Shown here: positions 7,646 to 48,464 of the stretch, one piece after another
Numbering within the stretch: the stretch's first letter is position 1
Layout: every line of letters starts with the position of its first letter
Source: Escherichia coli
GTDB lineage: Bacteria; Pseudomonadota; Gammaproteobacteria; Enterobacterales; Enterobacteriaceae
NCBI RefSeq assembly: GCF_003334255.1
Contig: NZ_QOWU01000040.1
Strand: one strand, 5' to 3'
DNA: 49,174 nucleotides
The notes under the pieces: model-generated
Told to the model about the DNA's origin: nothing
The model's database searches: none
The model's input: only the letters and a program-made list of their open reading frames with translations
Made by a program: the position numbers and the translations under genes

Positions 7646-7829
<184 letters not shown>

Positions 7830-17817: not shown

Positions 17818-17910
17818 AACGCCTCCTGACGCAACAACTTACCCGCACAAAATAGAATTGTGCTGTACAAACGTCCAGTTGGAAAGGCATTTCCTGCGAG
17901 GCGCTACGCA

Positions 17911-22097: not shown

Positions 22098-22333
22098 TTT
22101 TTCTTCCTCTAATTATATGTAAATCCTATGGATTTTGAATTTAGGGAAGGCGGCAAGTTTATTCATCCCCGGGAGCTTACTGAAGTAAGTGACCGGGGTG
22201 GAGAAACGCAGCCAACGCACCATAAATTTAAAAGACGAAGGATTTTAGCCGTCCAGATGTTTACACATCCATAATTGGCGGTTACTGTATATTCCTCAAG
22301 CGCAAATTATTCATGCCGAAGTGAAGGACTTTC
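22098..22333. promoter_or_regulatory. Divergent metE/metR control region (expected to hold the metE and metR promoters and MetR/MetJ operators)
   Basis: 236-bp divergent intergenic region. It contains the palindrome CTTACTGAAGTAAG and degenerate 8-bp AGACGTCT-like repeats (AGCCGTCC, AGATGTTT). I did not resolve exact operator positions. Confidence 0.4.
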
Positions 22334-27456: not shown

Positions 27457-29286
27457 CTACTCTTCGTCATCGCCATCAACATGCGCACGAATCAGCGCCA
27501 TAAACGGTTTGCCAAAGCGTTCCAGCTTGCGCATCCCAACGCCGTTAACGCTGAGCATTTCGCTGGCGGTGATCGGCATCTGTTCAGCCATCTCAATCAA
27601 GGTTGCGTCGTTAAACACCACGTACGGCGGGACATTACTTTCATCGGCTATCGATTTACGCAGTTTGCGTAATTTGGCGAACAGTTTGCGATCATAGTTG
27701 CCGCCGAACGATTTCTGCATCGCTTTCGGTTTGAGCGCCACGATACGCGGCACGGCAAGTTGCAAAGAGGATTCGCCGCGCAGCACCGGGCGCGCGGCCT
27801 CTGTCAGTTGTAGGGCAGAATGCTGGGCAATATTTTGCGTCACCAGGCCGAGGTGAATCAGCTGGCGGATCACGCTCACCCAATGTTCATGGCTTTTATC
27901 ACGGCCCATGCCATAGACTTTCAGTTTGTCATGACCATAGTCGCGGATACGCTGGTTATTAGCACCACGAATCACTTCCACCACATAACCCATCCCAAAC
28001 CGCTGATTCACACGACCAATGGTGGAAAGGGCAATCTGAGCATCGGTTGAACCGTCGTACTGTTTCGGCGGATCGAGGCAGATATCGCAGTTCCCGCACG
28101 GCTCCTGACGCCCTTCGCCAAAATAGTTCAGCAATACCAGACGACGGCAAGTTTGCGCTTCGGCAAACGCGCCCATCGCATTGAGTTTGTGGCGCTCGAT
28201 ATCCTGCAACTGCCCCTGCGGCTTCTCTTCCAGACAACGGCGCAGCCACGCCATATCAGCCGGATCGTAAAACAGCATCGCTTCCGCGGGCAGGCCATCA
28301 CGCCCGGCGCGTCCGGTTTCCTGATAATAGGATTCGATATTGCGCGGAATATCAAAGTGGACCACGAAGCGAACGTTTGGTTTATTGATGCCCATGCCGA
28401 ACGCCACCGTCGCCACCACAATTTGCAGGTCATCGCGCTGGAATTTTTCCTGCACATCGGCGCGAACATTATTTTCCAGCCCGGCATGATAGGCCGCCGC
28501 GCTAATTCCCTTGCTTTGCAGGCGCGCAGCGGTGTCTTCTACTTTCGCGCGGCTGTTGCAGTAGATAATGCCTGACTTACCGCGCTGTTCCTGCACGTAG
28601 CGCATCAACTGATCGAGCGGTTTGAACTTCTCCATCAGCATGTAGCGAATATTCGGACGGTCAAAACTGCTGATTTGAATCAGCGGATCGTTCAGCCCCA
28701 GCAGGCGCACGATATCCTGGCGCGTGGTGTCGTCGGCTGTGGCGGTCAGCGCCATAAACGGCAGCGTCGGGAACCGCTGGCGCAACTGACCGAGCGCGGC
28801 ATATTCCGGGCGGAAATCGTGGCCCCATTGGGAGATACAGTGCGCTTCATCAACGGCTAATAACACCGGATTCCAGTGCGCCAGATGCTCAAGAAAGTTA
28901 TCCAGCATCAGGCGTTCCGGGGCGATATAAAGCAGACGAATTTGCCCGGTGCGGCAGCCTGTCATCACTTCAAGTTGCTGTTCGCGGGTTTGCGTCGAGT
29001 TAAGGCACGCCGCCGCCACGCCGTTGGCTTGCAGTTGATCCACCTGATCTTTCATCAACGAAATCAGCGGTGAAACAACCACGGTAAGGCCGTTTAGCAA
29101 TAAGGCAGGGATTTGATAGCAAAGGGATTTTCCGCCACCAGTGGGCATGACGACGAGGCAATCGCGGCCGGAAAGCACAGTGTCGATAATTTCTTCCTGG
29201 CCGGGGCGAAACTGTTGGTAGCCAAAGGTTTCTTGTAAAACCTGTTTAGCTCCGGACTCCAGATTCAACACTTCCGCCTGCGCCAC
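27457..29286 (-). CDS. recQ: ATP-dependent DNA helicase RecQ
   Basis: Track ORF 27457..29292 begins at a GTG (MNVAQAEV). I recall the protein as 609 aa starting MAQAEV, which corresponds to the second GTG at 29284..29286, with GGGG five nt upstream as Shine-Dalgarno. DEAH helicase, RecQ-C and HRDC regions are evident. Confidence 0.9.
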
Positions 29287-34897: not shown

Positions 34898-35005
34898 GCC
34901 GGATGCGGCGTAAACGCCCTATCCGGCCTACATGACGTTGCAATTTATTGAATCTGAATGATTTTTTAGGCCAAATAAGGTGCGCAGCACCGCATCCGGC
35001 AACGT
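34898..35005. repeat. REP pair (BIME) between yigE and the uvrD 3' end
   Basis: GCCGGATGCGGCGTAAACGCCCTATCCGGCCTAC at 34898..34931 and an inverted partial copy GCGCAGCACCGCATCCGGCAACG at 34983..35005. Confidence 0.7.
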
Positions 35006-37167
35006 TACACCGACTCCAGCCGGGCGTATGCCGCCACCAGCCATTTAATACCCTGGCCCTGAAATGCCACCTGCAAACGGCTATGCTCACCGCTGCCTTC
35101 CATATTGACAATGGTGCCTTCACCAAACTTAGCGTGGCGTACGCGCTGGCCGAGCTTGTAGCCGCTGTCGTTCTCGACCATCGGCGTACCCATCCGCTGA
35201 TGGCTGACCGGGCGGCTTACCGTGGCGCGCAGGCGCACCTCTTCCACACACTCTTCCGGCAGCTCGCCGATAAAGCGCGACGGGCGATGGTAAACCTCTT
35301 TACCATACAGACGGCGGGTTTCCGCGTAGGTCAGCGTCAGTTTCTGCATCGCGCGGGTTACGCCAACGTAGGCCAGACGGCGTTCTTCTTCCAGACGCCC
35401 GCCTTCATCCAGCGACATCTGGCTTGGGAACATGCCCTCTTCCATACCAACGATAAACACCTGCGGGAACTCCAGGCCTTTCGCCGAGTGTAGCGTCATC
35501 AACTGCACCGCATCCTGCCAGGTATCCGCCTGCCCTTCACCTGCTTCCAGTGCCGCATGGGAGAGGAACGCCTGCAGCGGCATTAAATCTTCGTCTTCTT
35601 CGTTGTAGCTGAACTGGCGCGTTGCCGTCACCAGTTCCTCTAAGTTTTCGATACGCGTCTGACCTTTTTCGCCCTTCTCCTGCTCATACATGGTACGCAG
35701 GCCGGAGTCTTTAATTACCCGGTCAGTCTGTACATGCAGCGGCATATCGGCAGTTTCCTGCGCTAAGGCGTCGATTAATTCCATAAATCGCTGCAAGGCG
35801 CTGGCAGCTCGCCCGGCGAGGGCTTTTTCCTGCAACAGCTCACGACATGCCTGCCAGAGTGTTAACTGGCGATCGCGCGATGTCTGACGTACCACGTCCA
35901 GCGTCCGGTCACCAATACCCCGCGTTGGCGTATTCACCACACGCTCAAAGGCCGCGTCGTCGTTGCGGTTGGCAATCAGGCGCAGATACGAGAGCGCATC
36001 TTTGATTTCCTGGCGTTCGAAGAAGCGCATCCCGCCGTAAATACGGTACGGCATACTGGCCTGCAATAACGCCTCTTCGAGCACCCGCGACTGGGCGTTG
36101 CTGCGGTAGAGAATGGCGCACTCGGCAAGCGCTCCGCCGTTGTCCTGCCAGGTTTTGATGCGGTTAACCACAAAACGCGCTTCATCGAGTTCGTTAAAAG
36201 CGCAATAGAGGGAAATAGGCTCACCGTCCGCGCCATCGGTCCACAGTTTTTTACCCAGACGCCCGTTATTGTTTTCAATCAGGGCGTTAGCGGCGCTCAG
36301 AATATTGCTGGTAGAGCGGTAGTTTTGCTCCAGACGAATAGTTTCGGCACCGGGGAAATCATTAAGGAAACGCTGAATATTCTCCACCTGCGCCCCGCGC
36401 CAGCCGTAGATTGACTGGTCGTCATCACCGACGATCATCACTTTGCCGGTGTCGCCCGCCAGCAGGCGGATCCACGCGTACTGAATGTTGTTGGTATCCT
36501 GGAATTCGTCCACCAGGATATTGGTAAAACGTTCGCGGTAGTGTTGCAGGATATGCGGCTTGTTAAGCCACAACTCGTGAGCGCGCAGCAGCAGCTCGGC
36601 GAAGTCCACCAGGCCCGCGCGGTCACACGCTTCCTGATACGCCTGATACACCTTCTGCCAGGTCTGCTCCACCGGATTACCGTAGCTTTGAATATGATGC
36701 GGACGCAGGCCTTCATCTTTCTGGCTGTTGATGTACCACATTGCCTGCCGCGGCGGCCACTGCTTCTCGTCGAGGTTCATGGCTTTGATCAGACGCTTAA
36801 GCAGGCGTAGCTGGTCTTCACTGTCGAGGATCTGGAAATCCTGCGGCAGATTGGCGTCCATATGGTGCGCACGCAGCAAACGGTGCGCCAGCCCGTGGAA
36901 GGTGCCGACCCACATACCGCCCTGGCTCGTGCCCATCAGTTGCCCGATACGATGACGCATCTCCGCCGCCGCTTTGTTGGTAAACGTCACCGCCATAATC
37001 GAGTATGGCGAGCAGTTTTCCACGCTCATCAACCAGGCGATACGATGCACCAGTACGCGCGTCTTACCACTGCCCGCGCCCGCCAGCACCAGAAGGTTGC
37101 TGCGTGGCGCGGCCACCGCTTCGCGCTGTTTGTCATTAAGGCTGTCGAGCAGGTAAGAAACGTCCAT
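35005..37167 (-). CDS. uvrD: DNA helicase II
   Basis: Track ORF 35005..37356. Start trimmed to the internal ATG (MDVSYLLDSLNDKQREAV), 720 aa. Walker A motif GAGSGKT present. Confidence 0.95.
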   Translation of the reverse strand: MDVSYLLDSLNDKQREAVAAPRSNLLVLAGAGSGKTRVLVHRIAWLMSVENCSPYSIMAVTFTNKAAAEMRHRIGQLMGTSQGGMWVGTFHGLAHRLLRAHHMDANLPQDFQILDSEDQLRLLKRLIKAMNLDEKQWPPRQAMWYINSQKDEGLRPHHIQSYGNPVEQTWQKVYQAYQEACDRAGLVDFAELLLRAHELWLNKPHILQHYRERFTNILVDEFQDTNNIQYAWIRLLAGDTGKVMIVGDDDQSIYGWRGAQVENIQRFLNDFPGAETIRLEQNYRSTSNILSAANALIENNNGRLGKKLWTDGADGEPISLYCAFNELDEARFVVNRIKTWQDNGGALAECAILYRSNAQSRVLEEALLQASMPYRIYGGMRFFERQEIKDALSYLRLIANRNDDAAFERVVNTPTRGIGDRTLDVVRQTSRDRQLTLWQACRELLQEKALAGRAASALQRFMELIDALAQETADMPLHVQTDRVIKDSGLRTMYEQEKGEKGQTRIENLEELVTATRQFSYNEEDEDLMPLQAFLSHAALEAGEGQADTWQDAVQLMTLHSAKGLEFPQVFIVGMEEGMFPSQMSLDEGGRLEEERRLAYVGVTRAMQKLTLTYAETRRLYGKEVYHRPSRFIGELPEECVEEVRLRATVSRPVSHQRMGTPMVENDSGYKLGQRVRHAKFGEGTIVNMEGSGEHSRLQVAFQGQGIKWLVAAYARLESV

Positions 37168-37225
37168 TGGCACCGCCGCGTAAAAATAGGTTGGGCGGAG
37201 AAGCGCAACGCCCTCCGCCAAAAAG

Positions 37226-37241
37226 CTGGGTATATATACAG
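37226..37241 (-). promoter_or_regulatory. LexA (SOS) box of the uvrD promoter
   Basis: Minus strand reads CTGTATATATACCCAG, matching the CTGT-N8-ACAG consensus, about 60 bp upstream of the uvrD ATG. Confidence 0.8.
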
Positions 37242-37250
37242 ATTTGCTGA

Positions 37251-37967
37251 TTATATCAGCGAGGTCAGAGATGCCAACCGGGAAATTTCCAGATGCGGCA
37301 GTAAACGGCTGTCCCAGGTTTGCATCAGATCGCCATTTTCCGGTCTGATCCAACAAGCCTGCATTCCGCTGCGAATTGCCCCACCCACGTCAGTGGTGAG
37401 ATCGTCCCCAACATGTAAGATCTCGCCGATCGGCACGTTGAGTTTTTCCGCAGCCAAAAAGTACATATCGCTGAACGGTTTTGAGCGCCCGTGCGGGCCA
37501 GCGCGCAGCACAAACTCAAAATAATCCCCCAAACCAAACAGCTCCGGCTGGGCGTTACCGTTGGTGATCGCCACCAGCGGCCATTTCTTCGCCAGCTGTT
37601 TTAAGGTGTCGTGAGTTTGCTGCGGGACGTCGATTCGGCTGCGCCATTTGGCAAAGTTGATCATTGCTGCGTGTGCGCCTGCACTGGCTTCTTCGGCACT
37701 CAGCCCGGCGTCGAGCATCGCTTGTTCAATCGAACGAAAACGCCAGCGCGTCACGTCGTGATAAATCTCGGGTTCCGCTTCCCGTACCGCCTGGCGCAGG
37801 CGTTGCAGATCTTCATTCTGGAAGCTGCGCAGCGCCGGATGATAATTTTGCACAAAGGTAAGCGCCTCTCGCTCGGTGCGCAAAATCACCGGACGGTTAT
37901 CGTAAAGGGTATCATCCAGGTCAAAGGTGAGCGCCGAGATGCGCCCCAAAGGCCGGTAAAAACGCAT
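37251..37967 (-). CDS. yigB: HAD-family phosphatase YigB (recalled as 5-amino-6-(5-phospho-D-ribitylamino)uracil phosphatase)
   Basis: 238-aa ORF starting [24 protein letters not shown] (HAD DxD motif). Confidence 0.9.
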
Positions 37968-38863
37968 TATTTCCCCCGTTTGGCGCGTGGATGCGCCGCA
38001 TCGTACACCGAGGCAAGGTGTTGAAAATCAAGATGAGTATAGATTTGCGTGGTGGAGAGGTTGGCATGACCCAGCAGCTCCTGCACACCACGAAGATCGC
38101 CGCTCGACTCCAGCATATGCGTGGCGAACGAGTGACGTAATTTATGCGGATGAACGTGATTATTCAGCCCTTGTTTTATGCCCCATTCGGCAAAGCGTTT
38201 CTGCACATTACGCGCGGAGATACGCTTGCCCAGTTTCGACAGAAAAAGCGCGTCGTCTTCGCTACCAAACAGGTCGCGCAAATCAAGCCAGTGCTCAATC
38301 CACGCCACAGCGTTGCGACCAATCGGCAGGCGGCGCTCTTTGCTGCCTTTCCCCATAACCCACACTTCACCAGACTCCAGGTCGAGGTGTTTAATATCCA
38401 GCCCCACCAGCTCAGAAAGACGCAGACCCGCGCCGTACATCACTTCCAGCATTGCACGGTCGCGTACAGCGAGGGGATCATTGATATCAATATCCAGCAG
38501 CCGATTCATATCGTCGACGTCGATGTTTTTCGGCAGATGACGCGGCGCTTTCGGTGCCGAAACACCTTTCGCCGGGTTAGCTTTGAGTTCGTTCTGGCTG
38601 ACCAGCCAGTCAAAAAAGCTACGTAGCGCAGAAAGCCGTAACGCCAGACTTGCTGCTCCCAGCCCTTTACGGCGACTGCGTACAGCAAAATTGCGCACCA
38701 TCGTCACATCACATTGCTGCCAGCTTTGCAGGCCGTTTTCGCTGGCAAAATTGATGATCGCCTCAAGCTGACGCTGGTAGTTAAGCAGGGTTATCGGGCT
38801 AAGCTGGCGCTCCACGCTCAGATAACGTAGGTAGCGTTCTACATCGGTGTGTAAATCGGTCAT
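37967..38863 (-). CDS. xerC: Tyrosine recombinase XerC (chromosome dimer resolution)
   Basis: 298-aa ORF starting [33 protein letters not shown]; the C-terminal part carries the conserved tyrosine-recombinase residues ([13 protein letters not shown] ... [15 protein letters not shown]). Confidence 0.95.
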
Positions 38864-39567
38864 ACGCGTTCAATCCAACGCTCCAGAAGCTCCGGCAACA
38901 TCAGCGCAATTTCATGAAGTAACTGCGTTCCTTGCCCTTGTTGATAGTGACTGGCATCGCGACTGGTAAACAGCACGACACCCAAATCAGCATCGCTTCC
39001 CAGCATCGACATCGCCACCGATCCCACCGCTTTCGCTTCCGGTAGCACCACCAGCAGCTCTGGTCCGTTAAGCGGCCCAAGATAGTGCTGTTCCTGCCCC
39101 AAACGCTGAATACGCAGCGGTTCGAAAGACTGACGGCTTAATGCCAGATGAGTGTGGTTCGACGGCGCACCTAAGCGCCAGCGATCCGGAAACAGGCGCA
39201 GACTCGCACCTGCCAGGCCGAGATCGCGCGCCCAGCGGTGAAAGCGCATCAGCATATCGTCGAGACTGCTGGCGGCGGTGAGACTGCGCTGCAGGTAGAG
39301 TAGGCGATAAAACAGGCCTTCGTTGGCGATAGCCTGTTCCATCAACAGCGCCATGTTCTCTTCCAGAACATGAATATGATTACGTGCGCGGGCCATGTGC
39401 CACTCGACCAACGAAACGGTGCCGCGTACCGGATGCGGCACACGTATCGCTTCTACTGCGCGCGCATTACGGATAAAAAACTCAGGATTTTTAATCAGAT
39501 AATCGACAACCGCCCGGTCATCAAGCTCCGTGAGTGTTTCCTGCAGTTCTTCCCCTGGTTGCTTCAT
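38860..39567 (-). CDS. yigA: DUF484-family protein of unknown function
   Basis: 235-aa ORF starting [23 protein letters not shown]; 4-bp overlaps with both dapF upstream and xerC downstream. Confidence 0.85.
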
Positions 39568-40388
39568 AGATGAATAAATCCGTCGTAGACATGTACCGCC
39601 GGGCCAGTCATATATAACGGGTGACCCGGACCTTTCCAGGCGATATCAAGACGACCGCCGGGGAGTTCCACGCGTACTTCTTCGGCCAGCAAACCTTGCT
39701 GAATCCCTACTGCAACCGCCGCACACGCGCCGCTGCCGCAGGCCTGGGTTTCTCCTGCCCCACGCTCATAAACGCGTAAACGAATATGCTCGCGCTTAAC
39801 CACTTGCATAAAACCGATATTGGCGCGCTCCGGAAAACGCTCGTGGCTTTCCAGAACAGGACCAAGCGTTTCTACCGCCGCGGTATCGACATCATCGACC
39901 TGAATCACGCAATGCGGATTTCCCATCGACACCACGCCGCATAAGATTGTCTGCTCGGCGGCGCGCATAATATAGGTCTTTTCCGCTTTGTTAGCGCGAA
40001 ACGGCACGGCGGAAGGTTCGAAGTTGGGTTCGCCCATATTTACGCGGACCAGATCATCATCGGTGACGGTCAGAACCATCCGCCCGTTGGCGGTGCTGAC
40101 GCGGATATCACGCTTATTGGTCAGTCCTTTCAGACGCACAAAACGGGCAAAGCAGCGCGCACCGTTGCCGCACTGCGCCACTTCACTGCCATCAGCATTG
40201 AAAATGCGATAGTGAAAATCCAGTTCAGGATCATACGGCGGCTCAACCACCAGCAGTTGGTCAAACCCTACCCCCAGGTGCCGATCAGCCAGGCGACGAA
40301 TCAGCTCCGGTGAAAAAAAGACATTCTGCGTTACCGCGTCGACGACCATAAAATCGTTGCCAAGGCCATGCATTTTCGAGAACTGCAT
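39564..40388 (-). CDS. dapF: Diaminopimelate epimerase
   Basis: Track ORF 39564..40391 (MMQFSK...). Second ATG chosen, 274 aa. Confidence 0.95.
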
Positions 40389-40424
40389 CATTTACTCCAA
40401 TCACGCGGGTACAGAAACTGACTT

Positions 40425-40628
40425 TTAGTAATTCACCTGGGATGGACCATCGCCAGTGGCGCGATCGTTTTTATCCGGCACCGTGGATTGCGTTTGCGTC
40501 TCTACCGGTTTGGTCGGCGGCGGTGCGTTTTTATCTGCAGGCGGGAAATAGAGCGGACCTTTCAGACCGCAGCCCGTCAGGCTGAAGAGAGTAAGTAATA
40601 CAGTGAGTGCCTTAAACACGTTTTTCAT
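40425..40628 (-). CDS. yifL: Small lipoprotein YifL
   Basis: 67-aa ORF with signal peptide and lipobox (LTLFSLTGC). Confidence 0.85.
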   Translation of the reverse strand: MKNVFKALTVLLTLFSLTGCGLKGPLYFPPADKNAPPPTKPVETQTQSTVPDKNDRATGDGPSQVNY

Positions 40629-41031
40629 TATGGATTGCCTGTAAAGTTCATCGCTTTCTGCTTTCTATCATCGCAGGAGAAGACGTAAAAGCAAGCGTTT
40701 AGCGACTCTTTATGAAGTCTGAAAAGTGAGGAAATGCTGCGAGTATAACGCTTACTCGTGGGGATTTATGTTTTGCTGGTAGTTTCGTGATCGGCACCTC
40801 GCGCCAGGATGGCTTTATGCACTATCGCAATGTGGTTTGTTTGTTGTCTTTTTTAGTTCCGTCAGCGTGAGGATGCTCGCTCGGTAAACCTGATCATAAT
40901 GTTTACCAGAAACAGGGAAAGACGTGGTGTAACTGCGCCCTAATGAAGAGACAAATCTTTCGCTACACAGAGACATCATTATTCCGGTGACGGATGAATC
41001 GTGCCGGAACGCAGCCGCAGAGGTGCAAACT

Positions 41032-47267: not shown

Positions 47268-48464
47268 ATGCTAAAAGTGTTATTGCTCTTTGTGTTGCTG
47301 ATTGCGGGGATCGTGGTTGGCCCGATGATTGCCGGCCATCAGGGTTATGTGCTGATCCAGACCGACAACTACAATATCGAAACCAGCGTCACGGGCCTGG
47401 CGATCATATTGATTCTGGCGATGGTAGTGCTGTTTGCCATTGAGTGGCTACTGCGGCGGATCTTCCGCACTGGCGCGCACACCCGTGGGTGGTTTGTCGG
47501 ACGTAAGCGTCGCCGTGCACGTAAGCAGACCGAACAGGCGCTGCTGAAACTGGCGGAAGGCGATTATCAGCAAGTTGAAAAGCTGATGGCGAAAAATGCC
47601 GATCACGCGGAACAACCGGTGGTGAACTATCTACTGGCTGCCGAAGCCGCGCAACAACGTGGTGATGAAGCACGCGCCAACCAACATCTGGAACGCGCAG
47701 CGGAGCTGGCCGGCAACGACACCATTCCGGTAGAAATCACCCGCGTACGTCTGCAACTGGCCCGTAATGAAAACCATGCTGCACGCCACGGCGTGGATAA
47801 GCTGCTGGAAGTTACGCCACGCCATCCGGAAGTATTACGTCTGGCGGAACAGGCGTATATCCGCACAGGTGCATGGAGTTCGCTGCTGGATATTATCCCA
47901 TCAATGGCGAAAGCCCATGTTGGTGATGAAGAACATCGTGCAATGCTGGAACAACAGGCATGGATTGGCCTGATGGATCAGGCGCGTGCCGATAACGGTA
48001 GCGAAGGTTTGCGTAACTGGTGGAAAAACCAAAGCCGGAAAACGCGTCATCAGGTAGCGTTGCAGGTGGCAATGGCGGAACATCTTATTGAATGTGACGA
48101 TCATGATACTGCCCAGCAAATTATCATCGATGGCCTGAAACGCCAGTACGACGATCGCCTACTGCTGCCGATTCCTCGACTGAAAACAAACAATCCGGAA
48201 CAGCTGGAAAAAGTGCTGCGCCAGCAAATCAAAAACGTCGGCGATCGCCCGCTGTTGTGGAGCACACTGGGCCAGTCACTGATGAAGCACGGAGAATGGC
48301 AGGAAGCATCGCTCGCCTTCCGCGCAGCGCTGAAACAACGTCCGGACGCCTACGATTACGCATGGCTTGCCGACGCGCTGGACAGACTGCACAAGCCGGA
48401 AGAAGCTGCAGCGATGCGTCGCGACGGTTTGATGTTAACGTTGCAGAATAACCCGCCACAGTAG
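47268..48464 (+). CDS. hemY: HemY membrane protein (TPR-like; function in heme metabolism unclear)
   Basis: 398-aa ORF starting MLKVLLLFVLLIAGIVVGPMIAGHQGYVLIQTDNYNIE; 2 bp after hemX. Confidence 0.9.
   Translation: MLKVLLLFVLLIAGIVVGPMIAGHQGYVLIQTDNYNIETSVTGLAIILILAMVVLFAIEWLLRRIFRTGAHTRGWFVGRKRRRARKQTEQALLKLAEGDYQQVEKLMAKNADHAEQPVVNYLLAAEAAQQRGDEARANQHLERAAELAGNDTIPVEITRVRLQLARNENHAARHGVDKLLEVTPRHPEVLRLAEQAYIRTGAWSSLLDIIPSMAKAHVGDEEHRAMLEQQAWIGLMDQARADNGSEGLRNWWKNQSRKTRHQVALQVAMAEHLIECDDHDTAQQIIIDGLKRQYDDRLLLPIPRLKTNNPEQLEKVLRQQIKNVGDRPLLWSTLGQSLMKHGEWQEASLAFRAALKQRPDAYDYAWLADALDRLHKPEEAAAMRRDGLMLTLQNNPPQ

Follow-up and report, generated by a model that had tools for sequence, protein, structure and literature searches.

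The yigB-uvrD junction of Escherichia coli: the known LexA operator of uvrD, a promoter embedded in yigB and a leader hairpin

The window analyzed here, a stretch of 49,174 nucleotides, comes from the E. coli chromosome. The 701 bp around the site under study were matched in 5426 of 5426 complete genomes of E. coli, in many of them at 100%, and are annotated yigB and uvrD in RefSeq. As presented in Table 1, uvrD, which encodes DNA helicase II, is preceded on the minus strand by yigB, xerC, yigA and dapF. Between 37965 and 40391 on this strand, the successive genes dapF, yigA, xerC and yigB have overlaps of 4, 4 and 1 nt, suggesting translational coupling among these genes, and uvrD is separated from them by an 83-bp control region, the length given in the preliminary description being exact. 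Taken as 131 bp, the control region showed an identity of 99% or more in 5402 of the 5426 complete genomes, whereas the surrounding 701 bp reached this identity in only 3101 genomes. At the uvrD control region, the sequence of the window is identical to that of MG1655. An Rfam scan of positions 36000 to 38500 returned zero RNA families at E ≤ 1.

Table 1. Features of the yigB-uvrD region, in window coordinates.
Feature	Position	Strand	Description and basis
uvrD (DNA helicase II) CDS	35005..37167	-	ORF list and RefSeq (identical E. coli region)
uvrD start codon ATG	37167..37165	-	ORF list and RefSeq
Shine-Dalgarno-like GGCGGT, weak	37177..37172	-	4 nt before the uvrD ATG; from sequence
T5 run	37186..37182	-	begins 7 nt past the stem; from sequence
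Leader stem-loop GGCGGAG-(12 nt)-CTCCGCC	37219..37194	-	7-bp stem, between box and ATG; RNA fold
Full 20-bp LexA operator ATCTGTATATATACCCAGCT	37224..37243	-	+1..+20 of the uvrD transcript; best matrix score in the window
LexA box core CTG-N10-CAG, CTGTATATATACCCAG	37226..37241	-	single exact match in the window
uvrD transcription start site (A)	37243	-	7 nt past the -10; first position of the 20-bp box; ATG 76 nt downstream
-10 hexamer TATAAT	37255..37250	-	contains the yigB stop TAA; TG at 37258..37257
-35 hexamer TTGGCA	37277..37272	-	within yigB codons 230-232 (Arg-Leu-Ala); 16 bp from the -10
yigB-uvrD spacer	37168..37250	-	exactly 83 bp
yigB stop TAA	37253..37251	-	ORF list and RefSeq
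yigB CDS	37251..37967	-	ORF list and RefSeq; final 13 codons hold the uvrD promoter
xerC	37967..38863	-	upstream of yigB; ORF list and RefSeq
yigA	38860..39567	-	upstream of xerC; ORF list and RefSeq
dapF	39564..40391	-	upstream of yigA; ORF list and RefSeq

A consensus scan of positions 36800 to 37700 detected only one promoter-like site, with 11 of 12 consensus matches and an upstream TG. Its -10 hexamer is made of the final sense codon of yigB (ATA), the stop codon and the first base of the spacer. The uvrD promoter had been described as abutting the yigB stop; it is actually located within yigB, whose stop codon falls in the -10 hexamer. The transcription start site of uvrD is given at position 3997907 of NC_000913.3 (MG1655) in the Reg-Seq supplement, which credits it to Arthur et al. 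1987 (PMC7567609). Since uvrD starts at 3997983 and the window matches MG1655 exactly at this place, the transcription start maps to window position 37243. The same supplement also mentions a second validated start site. The hexamers, a spacer within 16-18 bp and a start 5-9 nt past the -10, as in sigma-70 promoters, are thus all present at uvrD. In addition, the LexA box begins at the start site, which gives the overlap with the promoter or start site seen for LexA boxes, and because the start site is the first base of the box, bound LexA would cover positions +1 to +20. The text covered of the Cappable-seq start-site supplement (PMC4782308) contains no coordinates near the uvrD site.

The 16-mer CTGTATATATACCCAG, proposed earlier as a LexA box on the minus strand, was indeed located there, as 1 copy in the window and with 0 matches in 100 shuffles. 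The box carries the CTG and CAG arms at the N10 spacing that are invariant in gammaproteobacterial LexA boxes, and an AT-rich centre, TATATATACC, with 8 of 10 positions A or T. Both of its outer flanks deviate from the TA...TA of the LexA consensus, TACTG(TA)5CAGTA (PMC11228462). The bare CTG-N10-CAG pattern is non-diagnostic, since 24 copies were counted in the window compared to 11.4 expected, an excess for which we suspect codon bias. More informative is a LexA position weight matrix, for which we took 17 E. coli boxes from Table 4 of PMC3009722, leaving out that of uvrD. Among about 98,000 window positions, the uvrD 20-mer scored highest, at 18.6 bits, and its heterology index (HI) was 7.8. 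A low score on a formal LexA scan had been named beforehand as the result that would speak against the box, and the first rank obtained here leaves the proposal standing. Across 100 first-order Markov windows equal in size to this one, the top score was 12.5 +/- 2.2 on average with a maximum of 21.1; because at least one of the 100 random windows scored higher, the score by itself is unusual yet possible by chance. The remaining doubt is removed by the position of the box at the start site and by the conservation across species presented below. When each of the 18 known E. coli boxes was scored in the same leave-one-out manner, the uvrD box ranked 11th, and it is of mid-range quality, not strong.

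Published data agree with the earlier proposal that uvrD is under SOS control. A UV tiling-array study reported a LexA motif upstream of the UV-induced uvrD gene, and this motif is identical to ATCTGTATATATACCCAGCT (PMC3009722). A LexA-regulon table limited to HI <14 lists uvrD with an HI of 8.5, taken from Courcelle et al. 2001 and compared to 7.8 computed here, and with fold-change values of 2.1, 1.7 and 0.62 (PMC11228462). Mutational scanning by Reg-Seq detected a repressor footprint at positions +6 to +14 of uvrD, which its authors attributed to LexA on bioinformatic grounds, grading the prior evidence for the site as 'low evidence' (PMC7567609). The term 'strong' in the preliminary description was overstated, given the rank of the box and two of the three tabulated fold-changes, 2.1 and 1.7 (PMC11228462). 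In its sequence, the uvrD element has all the features expected of an SOS box in gammaproteobacteria; for binding and induction, the evidence comes from the literature only.

Other LexA-like sites were observed in the window. The second-best matrix score belongs to AACTGGACGTTTGTACAGCA (17861..17880, minus strand; 12.8-14.9 bits, HI about 10-12), located about 43-62 bp upstream of rmuC (yigN). The rmuC gene is in the LexA-regulon table with an HI of 8.8 (PMC11228462), and AACTGGACGTTTGTACAGCA is probably the known rmuC SOS box. A further site, TACTGTATATTCCTCAAGCG (22283..22302, plus strand; 14.2 bits), has a perfect LexA left half-site and CAA instead of CAG in the right arm. The site is in the intergenic region between metR and metE, and the metR start is about 33-52 bp downstream of it. 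To our knowledge, no LexA role has been reported at metR-metE, and TACTGTATATTCCTCAAGCG may be a chance match. Finally, TGCTGGATATTATCCCATCA (47884..47903) is a weak LexA-like match of 10.6-13.3 bits, with CAT instead of CAG in the right arm.

The conservation of the control region was analyzed with a protein-seeded scan, keeping one genome per species, which gave 80 loci from Escherichia to Vibrio, Shewanella and Alteromonas. Of these 80 gammaproteobacterial loci, 66 have a box scoring 12 bits or more in the 150 nt preceding uvrD, compared to 1 of 240 control windows taken inside uvrD. Across Enterobacterales, Vibrionaceae and Alteromonas, the CTG and CAG arms and the spacing between them are conserved, and the flanks and the distance between box and ATG vary. 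We did not detect any LexA-like box in the 400 nt preceding uvrD in nine Shewanella loci (L048, L051, L054, L058-L060, L064, L074 and L075) or in Xenorhabdus ehlersii (L032), whose neighbouring lineages have one. In these Shewanella loci and in X. ehlersii, uvrD may be out of the SOS regulon, or the operator may have diverged.

The overlap between promoter and coding sequence is conserved as well. In 46 loci, yigB lies directly upstream of uvrD, with spacers of 34-155 bp, and the promoter register is kept in 44 of these 46 species: a TTGGCA-like -35, a 16-bp spacer and a TATAAT formed from NTA, TAA and T. This NTA-TAA-T arrangement reaches across Enterobacterales into Moritella and Oceanisphaera-like lineages. 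Among 41 ungapped yigB genes, the final codon is always NTA (Ile, Leu or Val) and the stop always TAA. Leu231 is encoded by TTG in 40 of the 41 species, and the synonymous-codon identity of the last 13 codons was 0.59 compared to 0.43 +/- 0.05, ranking first of 226 windows. Such synonymous conservation at the 3' end of yigB is the signature that would be expected of a promoter inside a coding sequence.

Downstream of the box, the leader contains a GC-rich hairpin. The preliminary description of the spacer had the box and the length right and overlooked this element between the box and the ATG. When the 96-nt leader was folded, the centroid structure was the GGCGGAG/CTCCGCC stem-loop, at -15.8 kcal/mol. 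This structure has the GC-rich stem-loop of an intrinsic terminator and lacks a U-tract directly after the stem, and is therefore not a canonical member of the intrinsic-terminator class. A terminator scan of the minus strand from 36800 to 37700 gave zero terminator-like sites, missing the hairpin because the T-run is displaced from the stem, and the E. coli uvrD leader folded no better than shuffled sequence (z +0.55). The supplements of a Term-seq study (PMC7815308) contain zero 3' ends for uvrD or yigB. Among the titles listed by a literature search on the uvrD attenuator, none was on the uvrD leader. Judging by its title, the 1983 paper of Easton and Kushner reportedly describes uvrD as controlled by LexA and by attenuation, and we take the leader hairpin to be that attenuator. 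Closer to the coding sequence, the GGCGGT motif is a putative ribosome-binding site, and the block (G)GCGGTGCC(A) is conserved immediately 5' of the uvrD ATG in Enterobacteriaceae.

Hairpins were also found in the leaders of relatives, at the same position as the E. coli hairpin and with non-homologous sequences. Of 48 spacers, 22 had a perfect GC-rich stem of 6 bp or longer, compared to 4.9 +/- 2.0 in shuffles, and 14 had terminator-like sites, compared to 1.8 +/- 1.3, 3-4 of these sites being the LexA palindrome itself. The mean folding z-score of 41 leaders was -1.0. Variants of the hairpin were observed: E. coli SCPM-O-B-8794 has a G-to-A change in the 3' arm (CTCCACC compared to CTCCGCC) that breaks one stem pair, and in E. 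albertii the stem is still paired via a G-U wobble. In a soil metagenome-assembled genome (L004) whose UvrD N-terminus is 97% identical, the spacer is enlarged to 138 bp by a long palindromic insert (-51.6 kcal/mol, z -3.6), which shows that insertions are tolerated between the box and the ATG. This insert looks REP-like. Because this relative has a REP-like element at the same place, a REP origin of the E. coli hairpin was considered; it was rejected, as local alignment to three REP consensuses, with a best p of about 0.05, was no better than for shuffles. One other match to the hairpin was obtained in the window, at 28108..28123 (15/16, E=0.1). Elsewhere in the window, exact matches to the cores of REP consensuses occur at 7648, 7755 and 26730; these are ordinary E. 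coli repetitive extragenic palindromes.

Read-through into uvrD from the upstream genes had been judged likely from the sequence, and for yigB-uvrD it is supported by transcript data. In Supplementary Data 3, SMRT-Cappable-seq extends the RegulonDB operon b3813 (uvrD) to b3812|b3813, that is yigB-uvrD, and records primary transcripts fully spanning both genes (PMC6131387). The co-transcript on record is that of yigB and uvrD. A consensus scan of positions 37700 to 40700 gave no convincing promoter inside xerC. The in vivo data covered here, these transcripts and the Term-seq catalogue, argue against efficient termination at the leader hairpin.

With high confidence, we interpret the locus as the classical uvrD operator of the E. 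coli SOS regulon, combined with an embedded promoter, read-through and a leader hairpin. A sigma-70 promoter within the last 13 codons of yigB starts transcription at window position 37243. A LexA dimer on +1 to +20 would block the binding or the escape of RNA polymerase, as the geometry and the established SOS mechanism suggest, and upon DNA damage, RecA-stimulated self-cleavage of LexA would free the promoter, following that same mechanism. Because the box is middling (HI about 8), repression would be leaky and induction only about 2-fold. LexA-independent transcripts from upstream of yigB would cross the spacer and also supply uvrD. On both kinds of transcript, the GC-rich hairpin of the 76-nt leader and its displaced T-run would probably act as a partial terminator, or attenuator, which is the least secure step of the interpretation.

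It could be argued that the palindrome is an AT-rich start-site or discriminator sequence resembling a LexA box by chance, uvrD being free of direct LexA repression. The abundance of CTG-N10-CAG in the window (24 copies), at least one random 49-kb window with a higher score, the induction of only about 2-fold (PMC11228462) and the 'low evidence' label given by Reg-Seq to the prior data (PMC7567609) all fit such a coincidence. However, control windows reached such scores in only 1 of 240 cases, the arms and their spacing are kept from Enterobacterales to Vibrionaceae and Alteromonas where the flanks vary, a repressor footprint obtained by mutational scanning is centred on the box (PMC7567609), and uvrD stands in published LexA-regulon tables (PMC11228462, PMC3009722). 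We consider a chance resemblance very improbable. LexA could also bind the box and serve chiefly as a roadblock to read-through from yigB, rather than as a block to initiation at uvrD, which the geometry permits, the box being inside the yigB-uvrD co-transcript and downstream of the -10. By contrast, the location of the box on +1 to +20 of a near-consensus promoter is the standard layout for blocking initiation, and the two effects can coexist; a predominant roadblock therefore seems unlikely to us.

The same low probability is given to an efficient terminator, in which the leader hairpin would end the dapF-yigA-xerC-yigB operon and insulate uvrD, leaving it expressed only from the LexA-controlled promoter. 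A GC-rich stem-loop followed by T5 just 3' of yigB, the excess of terminator-like hairpins among relatives (14 of 48 spacers compared to 1.8 in shuffles, though 3-4 are the LexA palindrome) and the arrangement of four overlapping genes with uvrD set off by 83 bp would be expected from such a terminator. By contrast, primary transcripts fully spanning yigB and uvrD were recorded by SMRT-Cappable-seq, zero Term-seq 3' ends were found for yigB or uvrD, and the T-run starts 7 nt past the stem and was uncalled by a simple terminator scan. Moreover, transcription from the uvrD start site has to pass the hairpin, so that an efficient terminator would silence uvrD itself.

The uvrD LexA box is already known: it is textbook biology and has been in SOS-regulon tables for decades. 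The element described here is the published SOS box and promoter of E. coli uvrD (Easton & Kushner 1983; Arthur et al. 1987; regulon tables), with no difference in E. coli. The only mildly new points, which add to the published uvrD system, are comparative, namely the deep conservation of the overlap between the -10 and the stop codon, and the recurrence of non-homologous leader hairpins. The uvrD operator resembles those of recA, sulA, umuDC, uvrA, uvrB and lexA in its CTG-N10-CAG arms, its TA-rich centre, its overlap with the promoter and its relief by RecA-stimulated LexA cleavage. However, it matches the consensus less well than the umuD, sbmC, recN, dinD, sulA and recA boxes, and it differs from other E. 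coli LexA operators in lying wholly downstream of the -10 (+1 to +20) and in an induction of only about 2-fold. Similarly, the uvrD 5' leader resembles the Rho-independent leader attenuators of pyrBI and pyrE in having a GC-rich hairpin, followed by a T-run, between promoter and start codon. In contrast to these, it showed no leader peptide or alternative antiterminator structure, its T-run is 7 nt from the stem, and zero in vivo 3' ends are catalogued for it.

The uvrD box serves as a positive control, being a real and well-placed regulatory site that was recognized from raw sequence. The promoter in yigB with the stop codon in its -10, and the box at +1 to +20 followed by the hairpin, are tidy cases of overlap between regulatory and coding sequence. 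The layout of promoter and box, together with the yigB-uvrD co-transcript, suggests a reason for the high basal level of uvrD and its modest SOS induction. More tentatively, and with less than even likelihood in our estimation, the yigB-uvrD junction could be an ancient dual-input control module, in which the LexA-gated promoter would force the end of yigB to be NTA-TAA-T and a re-invented hairpin would act as a partial insulator tuning constitutive dapF-yigB read-through into uvrD. If true, such a module would explain why helicase II combines a high basal level with a small SOS induction.
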